Shown here piece after piece: positions 8,690 to 15,601 of a DNA stretch of 64,000 nucleotides. Numbering within the stretch: the stretch's first letter is position 1; the number at the start of each line of letters is the position of its first letter. A program made the position numbers and the translations under genes. Origin of the DNA: Candidatus Pacearchaeota archaeon (GTDB lineage: Archaea > Nanobdellota > Nanobdellia > Pacearchaeales > GW2011-AR1); assembly GCA_027021195.1 (NCBI GenBank), contig JALUUW010000003.1, forward strand, positions 4,843 to 68,842. Direction: 5' to 3'. The notes beneath the pieces were generated by a model. That model saw only the letters and a list, made by a program, of their open reading frames with translations. It had not been told where the DNA came from and made no database searches.

Positions 8690-10177
8690 TCAGCTGTTAT
8701 ACCCCTCAACTCCGATAAAATTTGTTGAGCCTCCGCAGTCTCCAAGAGAGATACATGCATTATTCATCTCTTTCTTCCATGACTCTGAAAGGCACTCACA
8801 GTTTTTCACGCACTTTTCCTTTCCAGTCAGCCCTTTTTCAAATACTACTGTGCATTGAGTGTCTGCTATAGAGCATAAAGATTCAGCCTCAGTGTCCTCT
8901 TCCCAAAAATTAAATCCAGGGGCATTTTCAGGAACGCATCCTATTGAAGACCATTTGCAGTCTCTCCTGTCTTTATTCTCGCAGTCTTTTTTGGTTGTTT
9001 GAGAGGAGCAGTCCTGCCATTTATTTACTCTGCATGCAGCTGTCTTAAATCCGTCAATGTCGTCCTGGACACAGACTTCCTGCCTGAAATCCGCGCACGG
9101 CTCTATGCTTACCTCTCCGTTATAACACACCAGCCTGAAATGCCTGCTTCCAGGAAGGCTTTTGTCTGTCCCGCTTGCATCTGCGCACCATGTTTCCCCA
9201 TGCTTATATTTTTTTCCAAGATAATTGCAGCTTAAGTCTCTGCAGATGTTGTCTCCGTAAGTTGGCTTTACTCTGTCCTTTCCTCTTTCATAGGATTTGC
9301 AGGTGCTTCCCAAAAAATAATCGCAGTTGCCGCACCCGGATGATCCGGCATTTCCGTCTGCTGAACTAAATCCGCAGCTCTTTTCCTTTCCATAAGCCTT
9401 TGTCCAGTAGTTTTTGTCTTTTATTTTTGAGGCATCATAAATATTCGCAGGATTTCCGCAGCTGTCAACAAAGAAGACTTCATCTCTTCCTTCAATGCAC
9501 GTTGTTCTTTCTGAGGGTCCGCAGTTTGTTGCAAGCTCTTCTGCAGAGCATAAAAGCCCCTCGTAAAACTCTACATTGGAATCAGGAGAGCTCGCTTCCA
9601 TTTTTCGGCACTCTCTTTTTGTTATGAACTTGCATGTTCTTGCCATCTCTTCAGGATCCTCAAACACACATGCTCCTTTGACATCTGAAGTAGCAGAAGC
9701 AATGCATTCTATCTCGCTTCCTATGTTTGTCCTGAAGTCAGTTTCGAGCCCGTAAAGGGACGAAAGCCTTTTGCATCTCGTCTGCGTTACAAAAGCAGCC
9801 TGGTCTCCTATCAGGCAGCACCCAAGAGAGCATTGGGGGATTTCATCCATCTTCCCTTCGTTCCATACCCCTCCTGAATCCTCGCATACTTTTTGAGGAG
9901 TGTTTTCCATGCAGGTTCCCTCCTGGCTGTCTATGCAGGTTCCAAGCTTGCAATAAGAGGTCGCCTCGCAGGAAGTCGGGACTTTTCTGTATGAGCTGTC
10001 GCATTTATCCTGAGGAGCGTTCTGGCACCATGCATTGTTTACTGTTTTTTCGCAGCAGTATGAAACCTCTCCGACAGCTGAGACAATTGCAATATATGCT
10101 ATGACTGCCAAAAAAATCAGCGCAACTCCTGCTGCTAACCCTTTTTCAAAAACATTATTTGTCTTGTTTCTTCCCAT
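8690..10177 (-). CDS. Cys-rich membrane-anchored ectoprotein (paralogue of the N-terminal half of the 1247-aa protein)
   Basis: N-terminal TM segment (GLAAGVALIFLAVIAYIAIV) and roughly 43 Cys in 495 aa. Collinear motifs are shared with 11026..14769 (GCCLIGDQAAFVTQTRCKRLSS, SCGNPANIY, GCGNCDYFLGSTC, GSRHFRLVC, CISLGDCG). Confidence 0.7.
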   Translation of the reverse strand: MGRNKTNNVFEKGLAAGVALIFLAVIAYIAIVSAVGEVSYCCEKTVNNAWCQNAPQDKCDSSYRKVPTSCEATSYCKLGTCIDSQEGTCMENTPQKVCEDSGGVWNEGKMDEIPQCSLGCCLIGDQAAFVTQTRCKRLSSLYGLETDFRTNIGSEIECIASATSDVKGACVFEDPEEMARTCKFITKRECRKMEASSPDSNVEFYEGLLCSAEELATNCGPSERTTCIEGRDEVFFVDSCGNPANIYDASKIKDKNYWTKAYGKEKSCGFSSADGNAGSSGCGNCDYFLGSTCKSYERGKDRVKPTYGDNICRDLSCNYLGKKYKHGETWCADASGTDKSLPGSRHFRLVCYNGEVSIEPCADFRQEVCVQDDIDGFKTAACRVNKWQDCSSQTTKKDCENKDRRDCKWSSIGCVPENAPGFNFWEEDTEAESLCSIADTQCTVVFEKGLTGKEKCVKNCECLSESWKKEMNNACISLGDCGGSTNFIGVEGYNS

Positions 10178-10178
10178 T

Positions 10179-10967
10179 TTACACTAAAACTTCATCAACT
10201 CCGTATCCAGGAGGCCATGCAAGGCTTCTTGAAGCAAACTGGAATTTATTTCCGCTGTTGAGGTCTGTTAAAATATAGATTGTAGTGCCGTCGGATTGTT
10301 TTTTCTTCTCAACTTTCAAATCACGGTAATAGTTCATGTAGGTTGTTGTTTCAGCATCTCCGTATCTTGTTTCCCATGCAATTATGCTGTTTGCAATACT
10401 TAATAGTTCATAAAGATTATTGTTCAGGACTACTCTTAAATTGTCATAGCTTTCTGAAGATTCTTTTGTGAGAGTTAAGGAGTTGCTGAATGTAGCGACA
10501 ATTCTTTTTGGAAGCAGCTCAACATCAGGCTCTCCCTGCTTTAAGCTTACTTTATACCCTCTTTTCTCATAACTCTCTTTCATGGAATCAAAGCACTCTT
10601 TTGCCTTTCCTCTTATGTCTTTTTTTATCTCAGACTCAATGTGCTTTTTCAGCATTGGCTGCTGCACCACGCATGTTTTGTAGTACTCCTCAGTGTAGCA
10701 AAGATATTCTACTTTTTCATCATTATACAAAAAATAGTGTTCTGGCTTCAGGCTGCCACCCTGCATTGAAAGCCTTTCAACAGAATTTTTAATATCCTCT
10801 TCCATGCAGTTTTGAATAAATGCAGACGGATTCATGCTCTCGAGCCACAAATTAGACCCTATCTTTGGATAAAACAAGTAAGATAAAACACCTATAATCA
10901 CAATCATTATTGCAATTATGATGAAAATCGTCACTTGCCCCTTTCTTTTCCATGATATTTCCCGCAT
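10179..10967 (-). CDS. membrane-anchored protein with class III (pilin-like) signal-peptide-like N-terminus
   Basis: N-terminus is WKRKGQVTIFIIIAIMIVIIGVL. It is a paralogue of 14771..15601 (SMQGG, YLCYT..YY..C..PML, F.FA.RS...PPG). Its stop lies 1 nt before the downstream ATG. Confidence 0.6.
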   Translation of the reverse strand: MREISWKRKGQVTIFIIIAIMIVIIGVLSYLFYPKIGSNLWLESMNPSAFIQNCMEEDIKNSVERLSMQGGSLKPEHYFLYNDEKVEYLCYTEEYYKTCVVQQPMLKKHIESEIKKDIRGKAKECFDSMKESYEKRGYKVSLKQGEPDVELLPKRIVATFSNSLTLTKESSESYDNLRVVLNNNLYELLSIANSIIAWETRYGDAETTTYMNYYRDLKVEKKKQSDGTTIYILTDLNSGNKFQFASRSLAWPPGYGVDEVLV

Positions 10968-14769: not shown

Positions 14770-14770
14770 T

Positions 14771-15601
14771 TTAAAGCCCAGGAGGTATTATGCAGCTTCT
14801 CACTGCAAACCTGAATTTTTCTTTGCTGTTTTCATGCCTGACAGTATAGATTGTTTCTAAATCGCTTGTCTTGAATCTGTCTATATTGAATTGGGGATTA
14901 ATAATCATAAAGCCAAGATAGTCAAAATTGCAGAACCTTGCCTCTTGACTCAAAATCTCCTGCACAACAGCTGCAATATCATAAAATCTGCTTGGAATAT
15001 TCGCTTCAAGGTTTTCTTTTTTTGAGCTCTCCTCTGTTCTTGTAAGAGTAATCTCGCTGTCTGTTTTAATAATCACTCTCTTTGAGATTAAGTCAACTTC
15101 AAATCCCCTGTAATCCATGCTGACTTCATAATTCTGTTTTTCAAGATTGTTTTTTAATTCATCAAAACATACTTCCATGTCCTCTGCAATATAATTTTTT
15201 ATTTCTTTTTTTAGATGGCTCATCAGCATTGGCTCGTGATTTATGCAGGGAACATAATAATTTTGAGTATAGCATAAATAAGAGATATTTACAGGGTCTT
15301 CACCTTCAAACCTGAAGGTTTTGTAGAGCTCTGGTTCAATATATCCTCCCTGCATGGAGATTGTGCCAATAGCTTCCTTGACCTTGCCTTCAATACACGA
15401 GCTTAAAAAAGCTTCAGGATTTTTTTCAGGGCTCTTTCCTGTTTTTATAGGAGCTTCTCCCCTAAAGAATAAAAACGATGAAATTGCAACAACAACAATC
15501 ATGCCTGCAATTATGAAAATAGTAACCTGCGAGCGTTTTGCCTTTGGAAAAGCCCTTTTATTAAACAGCAGGCCTAAGGCACGAGTTCCTCTTTTTTTCA
15601 T
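14771..15601 (-). CDS. membrane-anchored protein with pilin-like N-terminus (paralogue of 10179..10967)
   Basis: N-terminus is KAKRSQVTIFIIAGMIVVVAISSFLF. Shares conserved Cys and SMQGG motifs with its paralogue. Its stop lies 1 nt before the ATG of the 1247-aa gene. Confidence 0.6.
   Translation of the reverse strand: MKKRGTRALGLLFNKRAFPKAKRSQVTIFIIAGMIVVVAISSFLFFRGEAPIKTGKSPEKNPEAFLSSCIEGKVKEAIGTISMQGGYIEPELYKTFRFEGEDPVNISYLCYTQNYYVPCINHEPMLMSHLKKEIKNYIAEDMEVCFDELKNNLEKQNYEVSMDYRGFEVDLISKRVIIKTDSEITLTRTEESSKKENLEANIPSRFYDIAAVVQEILSQEARFCNFDYLGFMIINPQFNIDRFKTSDLETIYTVRHENSKEKFRFAVRSCIIPPGL

Follow-up and report, generated by a model that had tools for sequence, protein, structure and literature searches.

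Pairs of pilin-like and cysteine-rich protein genes in a predicted cell-envelope cluster of Pacearchaeota and Woesearchaeota

How do Pacearchaeota and Woesearchaeota hold on to other cells? These archaea are abundant and uncultured and have a minimal metabolism. Among DPANN archaea, Pacearchaeota are reported to show the strongest attachment to hosts (bioRxiv 10.1101/2020.05.14.094862). Here we describe two gene pairs in a 64,000-nucleotide stretch of a Candidatus Pacearchaeota genome, called the window below, in which a pilin-like protein (S) is coupled to a large cysteine-rich one (L). They are good candidates for the way in which these archaea hold other cells, and the S-L cluster turns the question into testable targets that are concrete and lineage-wide.

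Two gene pairs and their genomic setting

The four genes lie on the minus strand, as do all features described below, in the order S1 (276 aa, 14771..15601), L1 (1247 aa, 11026..14769), S2 (262 aa, 10179..10967) and L2 (495 aa, 8690..10177). All four open reading frames were confirmed where a first-pass annotation of this DNA had placed them. It had also called the S proteins paralogues, and the motifs behind that call (QVTIFII, SMQGG, YLCYT..YY..C..PML and F.FA.RS...PPG) are present in both translations, which share 35% identity over 215 aa (E=1e-45). L1 and L2 are 37% identical over 519 columns (BLASTP, E=1e-88). Their collinearity down to the common ending CISLGDCG was upheld, but the range in L1, first given as residues ~90-590, had to be corrected to 50-545 with a Cys-rich core at 88-545. 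Judged from these alignments, the paralogy of the two pairs is far above chance.

Both S-L junctions read TAA-A-ATG, which bears out the 1-nt gap between stop and start that had been noticed in both pairs. A TATA-box-like TTTATAA starts 29 nt upstream of the ATG of S1 (15624..15630) and of S2 (10990..10996), the latter inside the 58-nt L1-S2 spacer, and no such element precedes L1 or L2. These are putative promoters of S1-L1 and S2-L2; the geometry of the S1 element is found at 12 of 50 window ORFs. Among related loci, 35 of 65 carry a TATA-like hexamer 22-42 nt upstream of S2, compared with a background of 0.107. Each pair may accordingly be its own bicistronic unit, in which ribosomes would first translate S and then start again on L, 1 nt downstream, yielding both proteins together in matched amounts.

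The pairs are conserved beyond this genome. In about 80 loci from Pacearchaeota and Woesearchaeota genomes, that is, within DPANN as had been supposed, the order primase, PCNA, S1, L1, S2, N2 and usually C2 recurs. S1-type orthologues precede L1-type genes, L follows directly after S, and in most of the loci the S stop and the L start are separated by -4 to +4 nt. S1, L1, S2 and L2 form separate orthologous groups in other genomes, and L2 has orthologues of about 59% identity in loci L001, L003 and L004. The duplication is therefore old and predates the radiation of these lineages. This does not fit a recent or fast-evolving adhesin, which the earlier words 'duplicated and diversified' would suggest. 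The Cys-rich modules are under a constraint similar to that on replication proteins, with a median pairwise identity of 0.49 (N2) and 0.42 (N1) compared with 0.49 for primase and 0.55 for PCNA. Partner-specific co-evolution of S and L was not detectable.

The two-gene module is not the whole unit; the pairs are part of a larger envelope cluster, whose predicted products include at most about six proteins bearing clear prepilin-type signals, besides two giant surface proteins. Complete clusters contain four additional proteins with class III-like N-termini, one of which is related to S2 over 119 columns (hhalign 87.5%). In related loci the cluster is adjoined by an S-layer gene (PF05124, S_layer_C; 29.1 bits at a cutoff of 23.9), and the conserved neighbour families comprise pilin-like proteins, the S-layer protein, a wHTH regulator, lipobox lipoproteins and housekeeping genes. 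The second giant protein is encoded by two genes in 44 loci and by one fused gene in 10. On this comparison L2, which is of the N2 type and consists of a signal/anchor and a Cys-rich N-module only, is the N-terminal gene of the second giant protein and not simply a shortened L1. In the window the locus is reduced and lacks the C2 partner, the four additional pilin-like genes and the neighbouring S-layer gene. L003 and L009 have three S-L pairs each. By gene content and order, the two S-L pairs are the first four genes of an old, lineage-wide and uncharacterised cell-envelope cluster of Pacearchaeota/Woesearchaeota (class Nanoarchaeia).

The genes could instead be cargo of a mobile element or virus, for example receptor-binding proteins of an integrated virus, and their GC content of 0.39-0.43 is slightly above that of the surroundings (about 0.36). 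This reading is extremely improbable and is effectively refuted by the conserved synteny, the chromosomal position beside PCNA and primase being fixed across about 80 genomes. The surrounding genes are housekeeping genes, the window ORFs flanking the cluster gave no Pfam match to an integrase or other mobile-element family, and a PHROG search found no match.

The S proteins and their relation to pilins

S1 starts with a class III (prepilin-type) signal (15461..15601), in which MKKRGTRALGLLFNKRAFPKAKRS precedes the predicted cleavage site and QVTIFIIAGMIVVVAISSFLFFR follows it; the basic n-region ends in KRS and is followed by Q25 and a 22-residue uncharged helix. In the S2 signal (10869..10967), MREISWKRKG stands before the site and QVTIFIIIAIMIVIIGVLSYLFY after it. 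Such a signal was found in 93 of 95 S proteins. Position -1 is occupied by G (74), S (11) or A (8) in all 93, position -2 by K/R in 83 and position -3 by K/R in 71; Q stands at +1 and F at +5. In every one of the 93 anchored sequences, Gln+1 is followed by 21-23 uncharged residues. These statistics suggest that the signal is cleaved by a prepilin peptidase, which raises the side question of which peptidase processes these prepilin-like proteins.

In the AF2 model of S2 a continuous helix spans residues 9-42, and its fold matches, weak but coherent, are to type IV pilins and pseudopilins, including GspI, GspK, PilX and the PilB minor pilin. Together with the textbook archaeal class III motif, these matches sustain the initial description of S as pilin-like. 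S proteins further contain four invariant Cys. Curated pilin families in Pfam or NCBIfam gave no hit to S at E<=1, and a profile search against PDB sequences found no match. S1 has 285 homologues in Pacearchaeota/Nanoarchaeota, all unnamed or 'hypothetical', and the family comprises 6,480 representative clusters in metagenomes, none with a curated model.

Class III signal peptide proteins include the Epd pilins of Methanococcus maripaludis (Gln at +1, DUF361) and the sugar-binding proteins of the Sulfolobus bindosome. S resembles such archaeal proteins in its signal, where a basic n-region with K/R at -2 and G/S/A at -1 precedes Gln at +1 and some 22 hydrophobic residues, in the long N-terminal helix and alpha/beta head of its model, and in being encoded within a multi-gene set of similar small proteins. 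In contrast to them, S matches no Pfam or NCBIfam pilin, has Phe rather than Glu at +5, carries two conserved Cys pairs in its 230-aa head, is translationally coupled to a giant partner, and has no linked ATPase, platform or peptidase gene in the ORFs and flanks screened. Domains grafted onto pilins are also known from Streptococcus sanguinis, where PilB and PilC are modular type IV pilins with a functional domain on a pilin module. Unlike these, L is much larger, has extra internal hydrophobic segments and bears a Cys module with no known relative.

Do S and L then form the tip of a true type IV pilus, with S and the other small proteins as filament-priming minor pilins and L as a PilY1-like tip adhesin? 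The class III signals on S and the downstream small proteins, the large non-pilin proteins embedded in a pilin-like gene set and the fold matches to minor pilins and the tip pseudopilins GspI/GspK point in this direction, and a PilY-like adhesin has been described for subsystem 4A of the archaeal TFF systems, some Nanoarchaeota among them (bioRxiv 10.64898/2026.04.22.720090). Divergent pilin-like proteins are likewise co-encoded with a very large non-pilin surface protein in fimU-pilVWXY1E minor-pilin/PilY1 operons and in the GspK-GspI-GspJ tip of the T2SS. In contrast to these bacterial systems, the S-L lineage is archaeal, its L proteins are predicted to be membrane-anchored, and two or three dedicated 1:1 pairs replace the single adhesin per operon. 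No PilY1 beta-propeller or vWA domain was found in L1 or L2 (Pfam at E<=1, PDB sequence and fold searches). The mid-protein membrane segments predicted in L1 and C2 also argue against these proteins leaving the membrane on a filament.

A further point against a pilus tip is the gene content. The ~50 scanned window ORFs of at least 150 aa (those at 61341-61841 and 63459-63923 left out) included no gene for an A24-family prepilin peptidase (PibD/FlaK/EppA), a pilus ATPase or a platform protein (TadC/FlaJ), a crude screen of 80 loci revealed no pilus machinery within 10 kb of the cluster, and there is no obvious major pilin in the scanned ORFs or flanks. Type IV pilus components have been stated to be missing in DPANN genomes (bioRxiv 10.1101/2020.05.14.094862). 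Nevertheless, archaeal pilin genes are often unlinked from their machinery (PMC4858521), and the missing nearby ATPase or platform gene is therefore not decisive. Taken together, we consider a true pilus tip unlikely.

Architecture of the L proteins

L1 is composed of an anchor helix h1, a degenerate h2, a Cys-rich N-module, a Gly-rich hydrophobic M region and a putatively Ig-like C-module. It has 619 homologues, most of them full length at 40-58% identity and none with a Pfam domain. The N-terminal hydrophobic helix h1 (residues 13-38, 14656..14733; LSLLAVVMFQIFLLVNMSPATSYVIG) is common to the separate C2 genes: an HMM of C2 N-termini matches L1 residues 17-39 (E=7e-6), and it hits the N-terminus of 53 of 88 N+C proteins and 38 of 53 C2 proteins compared with 2 of 75 N2 and 0 of 154 S proteins. 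The weakly hydrophobic h2 (residues 58-84, 14518..14598) ends in IVSA and aligns to the L2 N-terminus (BLASTP). As far as the alignment can tell, it is a homologue of the L2 signal/anchor (residues 1-34, 10076..10177), with a Kyte-Doolittle peak of 1.7 compared with 2.8 (2.84) in L2. Between IVSA and VGE the L2 sequence presents a signal-peptidase-I-like site at which it is probably cleaved, and its basic n-region followed by a strong hydrophobic segment places the Cys module outside the cell.

The Cys-rich N-module covers residues 88-545 of L1 (13135..14508; 45 Cys, 9.8%) and residues 38-482 of L2 (8732..10066). The overall Cys content of L2, estimated at about 43 residues in the first annotation, is exactly 43 of 495 aa (8.7%). 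The AF2 model of L2 (pLDDT 78.4) contains short beta-beta-alpha units stapled by Cys, then a beta-rich region ending in CISLGDCG. By hhalign, units c and d are related with 90.9% and b and c with 70.5% probability, and unit a is unrelated. In 51 sequences, 44 Cys columns are conserved at >=90%. The pair 80/111 co-varies, with both residues present in 57 sequences, neither in 76 and a mixed state in 1. Conserved columns and a jointly gained or lost pair fit disulfides; most modules have an odd number of Cys.

No known family was found for this module in Pfam or NCBIfam, nor a solved structural relative. PDB sequence searches with the L proteins gave no match and a Foldseek search with the L2 model no structural match. 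With the PHROG search also negative, the initial view that no family could be named for either partner stands. The only fold matches, all weak, were to extracellular disulfide modules (TNFR cysteine-rich domains, fibronectin type I, VWC/EGF of NEL), and like these eukaryotic-type modules L is built of small Cys-stapled beta-hairpin units in series. The module also raises the side question of how an anaerobic minimal cell makes about 22 extracellular disulfides per module.

Could the Cys residues bind Fe-S or Zn instead, in a metal or redox protein of the cytoplasm or membrane face? The Cys content is very high and invariant, the organisms are anaerobic with no Dsb-like gene seen in the window, and two membrane-spanning N-terminal segments in L1, if both did span it, would leave the module on the cytoplasmic side. 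Against this stand the single signal/anchor of L2 with its basic n-region, the paired gain or loss of Cys 80/111, the extracellular nature of the best fold matches, the lack of a match to a CxxC-rich ferredoxin or Zn-ribbon family, and a partner, S, that is itself pilin-like, predicted to be secreted and equipped with conserved Cys. We regard metal binding as very improbable.

The M region of L1 (residues 610-746, 12532..12942) is predicted to form one or more membrane hairpins. Its Gly/Ala/Thr-rich hydrophobic segments (666-685, 694-715 and 720-746) carry glycine-zipper-like, GxxxG-rich motifs, and a weak Rick_17kDa_Anti glycine-zipper hint remained under the cutoff. The C-module (residues 751-1247, 11029..12519) is homologous to the separate C2 genes. 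It opens with a Cys-knot-like stretch (CMPWQAP...CKRC...) and continues as a series of beta-sandwich-like repeats that carry the motif [YV]xC[KE]D..GN. The bacterial Ig-like domain Big_13 (PF19077) scored 17.5 bits in the window L1, under the cutoff of 27, compared with 28.4 bits in the orthologous C-module of the L004 C2.

The hydrophobic, GxxxG-rich M region, the elongated multi-module ectodomain and the combination of minimal metabolism and strong attachment in Pacearchaeota could also indicate a machine acting on the host membrane, in which M hairpins and disulfide spikes insert into or bridge that membrane as a pore, fusion device or conduit for lipids or metabolites. A fusexin or class II fusogen identity of the L N-module was rejected, as the match was non-significant and Foldseek found none; moreover, neither a fusion loop nor a trimerisation feature was recognised, and M may be a simple anchor in the archaeon's own membrane. 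We consider such a machine quite improbable.

Possible roles at the cell surface

The reading that we favour, at somewhat less than even confidence, is that S and L are a co-translated pilin-like anchor and a disulfide-rich surface protein which form a cell-surface contact complex. A prepilin peptidase whose gene lies elsewhere would cut the class III signal of S behind the G/S/A at -1, leaving Gln1 and a 21-23-residue hydrophobic helix in the membrane and a disulfide-stabilised alpha/beta head outside. L would be exported to display a rigid module with about 22 disulfides, to which L1 would add its glycine-rich membrane hairpin and Ig-like C-module. S might bind its own L and hold it at the membrane. 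Alternatively, in genomes with the full cluster, S and the other pilin-like proteins might build a short stalk resembling a pseudopilus and thereby push L across the S-layer. At that place L would be the surface by which the cell contacts or adheres to others. The interaction of S with L, their surface display and the adhesion role are predictions; given the published attachment of Pacearchaeota, we infer that a role in host attachment is plausible.

Several observations count against a contact complex. Pilus machinery was not found in the scanned window ORFs or in the 10-kb flanks of 80 loci, and the conservation level of L is unlike that of typical fast-evolving adhesins. The internal hydrophobic segments of L1 and C2, the undetected partner-specific co-evolution and the mostly odd Cys counts of the modules point the same way. 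A housekeeping envelope scaffold, in which S-L serves S-layer anchoring, spacing or biogenesis irrespective of a host and without adhesion, is less probable but deserves serious consideration. Such a role would agree with the single conserved locus beside the core genes PCNA and primase in all surveyed genomes, with Cys-rich modules that match primase in conservation, with the S-layer and lipobox lipoprotein genes in the cluster and with the predicted membrane embedding of L1 and C2 through h1 and M. However, the window locus does without C2, the S-layer gene and the additional pilin-like genes, so that here the complete set can be dispensed with; loci differ in copy number, with three pairs in L003 and L009, and L resembles no known S-layer or anchor protein, with neither S_layer_N nor S_layer_C domains found in L1 or L2 (Pfam).

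Comparable DPANN gene clusters have been described, namely the arCOG01314 putative archaeal secretion/S-layer-associated system (Makarova et al. 2015, PMC5898192) and the 'NEQ255' DPANN-specific secreted protein family beside S-layer-like genes (Makarova et al. 2019, PMC6393860). Like these conserved 'dark matter' clusters, the S-L cluster combines secreted and membrane proteins with Ig-like domains beside S-layer genes. Unlike the arCOG01314 system, the S-L loci contain none of its markers (MoxR AAA+ ATPase, vWA protein, arCOG01314-like gene).

A more far-reaching version is a host-docking apparatus that needs no type IV pilus motor, in which processed but never long-polymerised S presents rigid spikes of about 22 disulfides, and spikes and glycine-zipper hairpins clamp or penetrate the host envelope. 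In this version the Cys-rich module would represent a fold not yet seen in structural biology. We rate this version as doubtful. If true, such motor-less docking would explain at the molecular level why Pacearchaeota are attached to their hosts with unusual strength.

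Two gene pairs and their probable transcription units

The four minus-strand genes reported by the first-pass annotation were located exactly as claimed. The small pilin-like gene S1 (14771-15601, 276 aa) is followed by its giant Cys-rich partner L1 (11026-14769, 1247 aa), and the second small gene, S2 (10179-10967, 262 aa), by L2 (8690-10177, 495 aa). The proposed paralogy of the small proteins was borne out, with 35% identity over 215 residues (E=1e-45). L2 and L1 are indeed collinear (37% identity, E=1e-88) down to the common ending CISLGDCG seen in both copies, but the entire length of L2 aligns with L1 residues 50-545, and the shared span thus starts near residue 50 and not 90. 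We counted 43 Cys in L2 (8.7%), matching the earlier estimate of about 43 or ~9%, and 45 Cys (9.8%) in the corresponding part of L1. At protein identities of 35-37%, synonymous sites are saturated and a dN/dS ratio for S1/S2 or L1/L2 is meaningless. As in the first-pass annotation, no family could be named for the four proteins, none of which matched Pfam, NCBIfam or PHROGs above cutoff.

Both S-to-L junctions carry the 1-nt spacer described earlier, each reading TAA-A-ATG. In most related loci the best L start lies -4 to +4 nt from the S stop: S1 junctions were found at +1 in 19 loci, at -4 in 19 and at -1 in 8, and S2 junctions at -4 in 27 loci, at +1 in 9 and at -1 in 5. On the minus strand, TTTATAA starts exactly 29 nt upstream of the ATG of S1 (15624-15630) and of S2 (10990-10996), and it precedes neither L gene in the window. 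Moreover, 35 of 65 loci had a TATA-like hexamer ahead of S2, versus a background of 11%. Since these elements stand before the S genes and not before the L genes, each S-L pair most likely forms its own bicistronic unit. Among the 50 window ORFs, 12 have TTTA[TA]A 26-29 nt upstream of the ATG, 8 of them, including S1 and S2, at exactly 29 nt. This spacing looks like the leaderless-type promoter geometry of the organism and suggests that most of its transcripts are leaderless, with the TATA element at a set distance from the start.

Signals and modules of the partner proteins

A common N-terminal pattern fitted 93 of 95 aligned S proteins. It comprises a basic stretch with K/R at -2 (83/93), G/S/A at -1 (93/93), Gln at +1, Thr/Ser at +3 (90/93) and Phe at +5 (93/93), with an uncharged run of exactly 21-23 residues. 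Gln at +1 is a hallmark of Methanococcus EppA substrates as well. Read from the sequence, the S N-terminus is a predicted class III (prepilin) signal, as described in general for archaea (PMC4858521). The AlphaFold model of S is confident (pLDDT 85.9) and shows a helix at residues 9-42 and then an alpha/beta head, and four Cys are invariant. By hhalign (87.5%), S2 also has a relative, over 119 columns, among the small families encoded downstream in complete clusters. The S profile found no match among PDB sequences, and no curated pilin model in Pfam or NCBIfam matches S; therefore, we call it pilin-like by motif and probable fold and assign it to no named family.

In the Cys-rich N-module of the giant proteins (N1 in the first, N2 in the second), 44 Cys columns are conserved at at least 90% in 51 sequences. 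The L2 model (pLDDT 78.4) consists of short beta-beta-alpha Cys-stapled units and then a beta-rich region. Units c and d resemble each other (90.9%), units b and c do so more weakly (70.5%), and unit a has no detectable similarity to the rest. Cys columns 80 and 111 were both present in 57 sequences, both absent in 76 and mixed in 1, as expected for the predicted disulfide. Other Cys pairs with high phi were discarded as truncation artefacts, and because the Cys count per module is usually odd, its parity was left out of the evidence.

L2 has a basic n-region and a single strong hydrophobic segment ending IVSA|V, which would place the Cys-rich module outside the cell. Intracellular metal binding, the reading that would keep these proteins inside, is accordingly set against a predicted exported module, and we regard it as very improbable. 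L1 has its first hydrophobic helix (QIFLL...SYxIG) in common with the N-termini of separate C2 genes, which encode the C-terminal part of the second giant protein, but not with N2 or S; the L1 Cys-rich module is thus flanked by an anchor helix on one side and by the M-C part on the other. The M region (residues 610-746) is Gly-rich and hydrophobic, and the C-module carries Ig-like repeats, with Big_13 above cutoff in one orthologue. The second hydrophobic segment of L1 (1.7) is much weaker than its L2 counterpart (2.8) and may be translocated. L1 had no match among PDB sequences.

An old and constrained gene cluster

Homologues of L1 (619), S2 (1784) and S1 (285), none with a Pfam domain, came only from Pacearchaeota, Woesearchaeota and Nanoarchaeota bins or from unnamed bins. 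An exhaustive profile search placed 6,480 representative clusters in the S family, the matches listed being close members only, and a scan of one genome per species gave 338 confirmed stretches. The 80 retained loci are all labelled as these archaeal lineages, plus one MAG labelled 'bacterium'. This MAG (JAUUWR010000018.1) carries an archaeal PCNA and the full S1-L1-S2-N2 cluster, and its label is probably wrong.

Classification of every ORF in 85 fetched loci revealed a recurring order: a 600-aa Cys-rich protein (-), primase (-), PCNA (+), S1-type, L1-type (N+M+C, about 1250 aa), S2-type, N2-type (about 520 aa) and usually a separate C2 (about 750 aa). The pairing is therefore conserved in other genomes, as the first-pass annotation had supposed, and some genomes (L003, L009) hold three pairs. 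The window S2 shares 65-68% identity with S2 of loci L001 and L003 versus 30-37% with their S1. By sequence comparison, S1/S2 and L1/L2 are distinct orthogroups, and the duplication is thus older than the radiation of these lineages. Hence the paralogous pairs are real, but the tandem duplication is not local, and the scope is wider than previously seen, namely a conserved multi-gene envelope cluster. Its fixed synteny rules out a mobile element, and a PHROGs scan of all four proteins gave no viral-family match above cutoff; we therefore give almost no credence to mobile-element cargo. The cluster region (8001-16000) has a GC content of 0.38-0.43 versus a window average of about 0.36, which, given the conserved synteny, probably stems from Cys/Gly-rich coding and not from foreign origin.

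A third Cys-rich envelope protein is encoded at 18199-20064 on the plus strand (621 aa, 31 Cys, no Pfam family). It has a signal at the N-terminus, a C-terminal TM at 510-536 and a tail rich in Pro and Arg. The start of its gene and the primase stop overlap by 4 nt, and the synteny with primase, PCNA and S1 is kept in many related loci at 48-51% identity.

Median pairwise identity was 0.55 for PCNA, 0.49 for primase, 0.49 for N2, 0.42 for N1, 0.37 for S2 and 0.34 for S1. N2 and N1 lie near primase. The pairs are old and constrained and not 'diversified' as had been proposed. Steady purifying selection acts on these proteins, which sets them apart from typical adhesins with their fast diversification, and the dynamics are less exotic than first thought. 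That S2 is as conserved as PCNA was rejected, being true among close relatives only (0.37 vs 0.55 in the wider set). A mirror-tree test detected no partner-specific co-evolution, with partial correlations of 0.44 for S1-N1, 0.19 for S2-N2 and 0.44 for N1-N2. Beside this constraint, a housekeeping envelope scaffold has to be considered, and we rate it as a real though minor possibility.

The second giant protein is split into N2 and C2 in 44 loci and fused in 10; no more than 7 loci showed no C2 within 4 kb, and one of these (L001) has it further downstream. Beyond the end of L2, the window has a convergent gene for an Lrp/AsnC-type regulator. Searches of the 64-kb window detected no C2, no extra pilin-like families, no S-layer gene and neither the lipobox lipoproteins nor the wHTH regulator of complete clusters; the window thus carries a reduced form. 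Complete clusters extend downstream on the same strand with additional envelope genes. They encode one to three lipobox lipoproteins, and three ~171-aa and one ~316-aa small proteins, all with prepilin-like N-termini (class III-like signals KKG|QLKIQQMAF, KKA|QEEMIGF and KKG|xLExSFxWxFAII). These small genes lie downstream of C2 (L004 16184-18652; also L015, L020-L022, L030, L031 and others) and are followed by a wHTH (HVO_A0114) gene and an S-layer protein gene (PF05124, above cutoff). The one to three lipobox proteins (190-265 aa, classical L-x-G-C) are encoded between N2 and C2, for instance at L030 11575-12920 and L045 11508-13228. Some genomes also have toxin-antitoxin inserts, MNT/HEPN-like or RelE-like, within the cluster.

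Possible function and neighbourhood

The reading we favour, tentatively and at somewhat under even chances, is a lineage-wide envelope cluster in which S, a pilin-like protein co-translated with L, would anchor or present this disulfide-rich giant protein, and the two would form a contact complex on the cell surface. Among DPANN lineages, Pacearchaeota were reported to show the strongest enrichment in the size fraction attached to hosts (bioRxiv 10.1101/2020.05.14.094862). In 2019, a DPANN-specific secreted family beside S-layer-like genes had been singled out as dark matter (PMC6393860). A host-membrane-active machine we consider unlikely.

A true pilus tip complex, comparable to minor pilins with PilY1, would fit the PilY-like adhesin of archaeal TFF subsystem 4A (bioRxiv 10.64898/2026.04.22.720090). 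The scanned window ORFs, all of 150 aa or more, included no pilus ATPase, platform or prepilin peptidase; a crude screen of sequence up to 10 kb from the cluster in 80 loci detected none either, and type IV pilus components have been stated to be missing in DPANN genomes (bioRxiv 10.1101/2020.05.14.094862). We hold this alternative to be rather doubtful, less so than the membrane-active machine. An arCOG01314 secretion system was rejected, its signature genes being absent. According to surveys of archaeal TFF systems, proteins with class III signals also serve as platforms for other functions (bioRxiv 10.64898/2026.04.22.720090). Prepilin-type proteins working with large surface proteins are already known; new is the Cys-rich module without known relative, whose function we infer.

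The window is a housekeeping region (aminoacyl-tRNA synthetases, eRF1, Cbf5, topoisomerase, two CDC48 paralogues and Nre). The two CDC48/p97-type AAA+ ATPase paralogues are adjacent and full-length (55104-57398 and 57805-59988, plus strand). A 248-aa protein (22302-23048, minus strand), with a lamin-tail-domain match below cutoff (28.8 bits vs 34.3), may be another secreted or envelope protein. Three radical SAM genes occur in 64 kb of a minimal genome, at 550-1716 (+), 5109-6170 (-) and 50317-51624 (+), with SPASM domains confirmed in the first and third and weak in the second. The second of them is close to the cluster, which is flanked by radical SAM genes in L001, L062 and L073 too.
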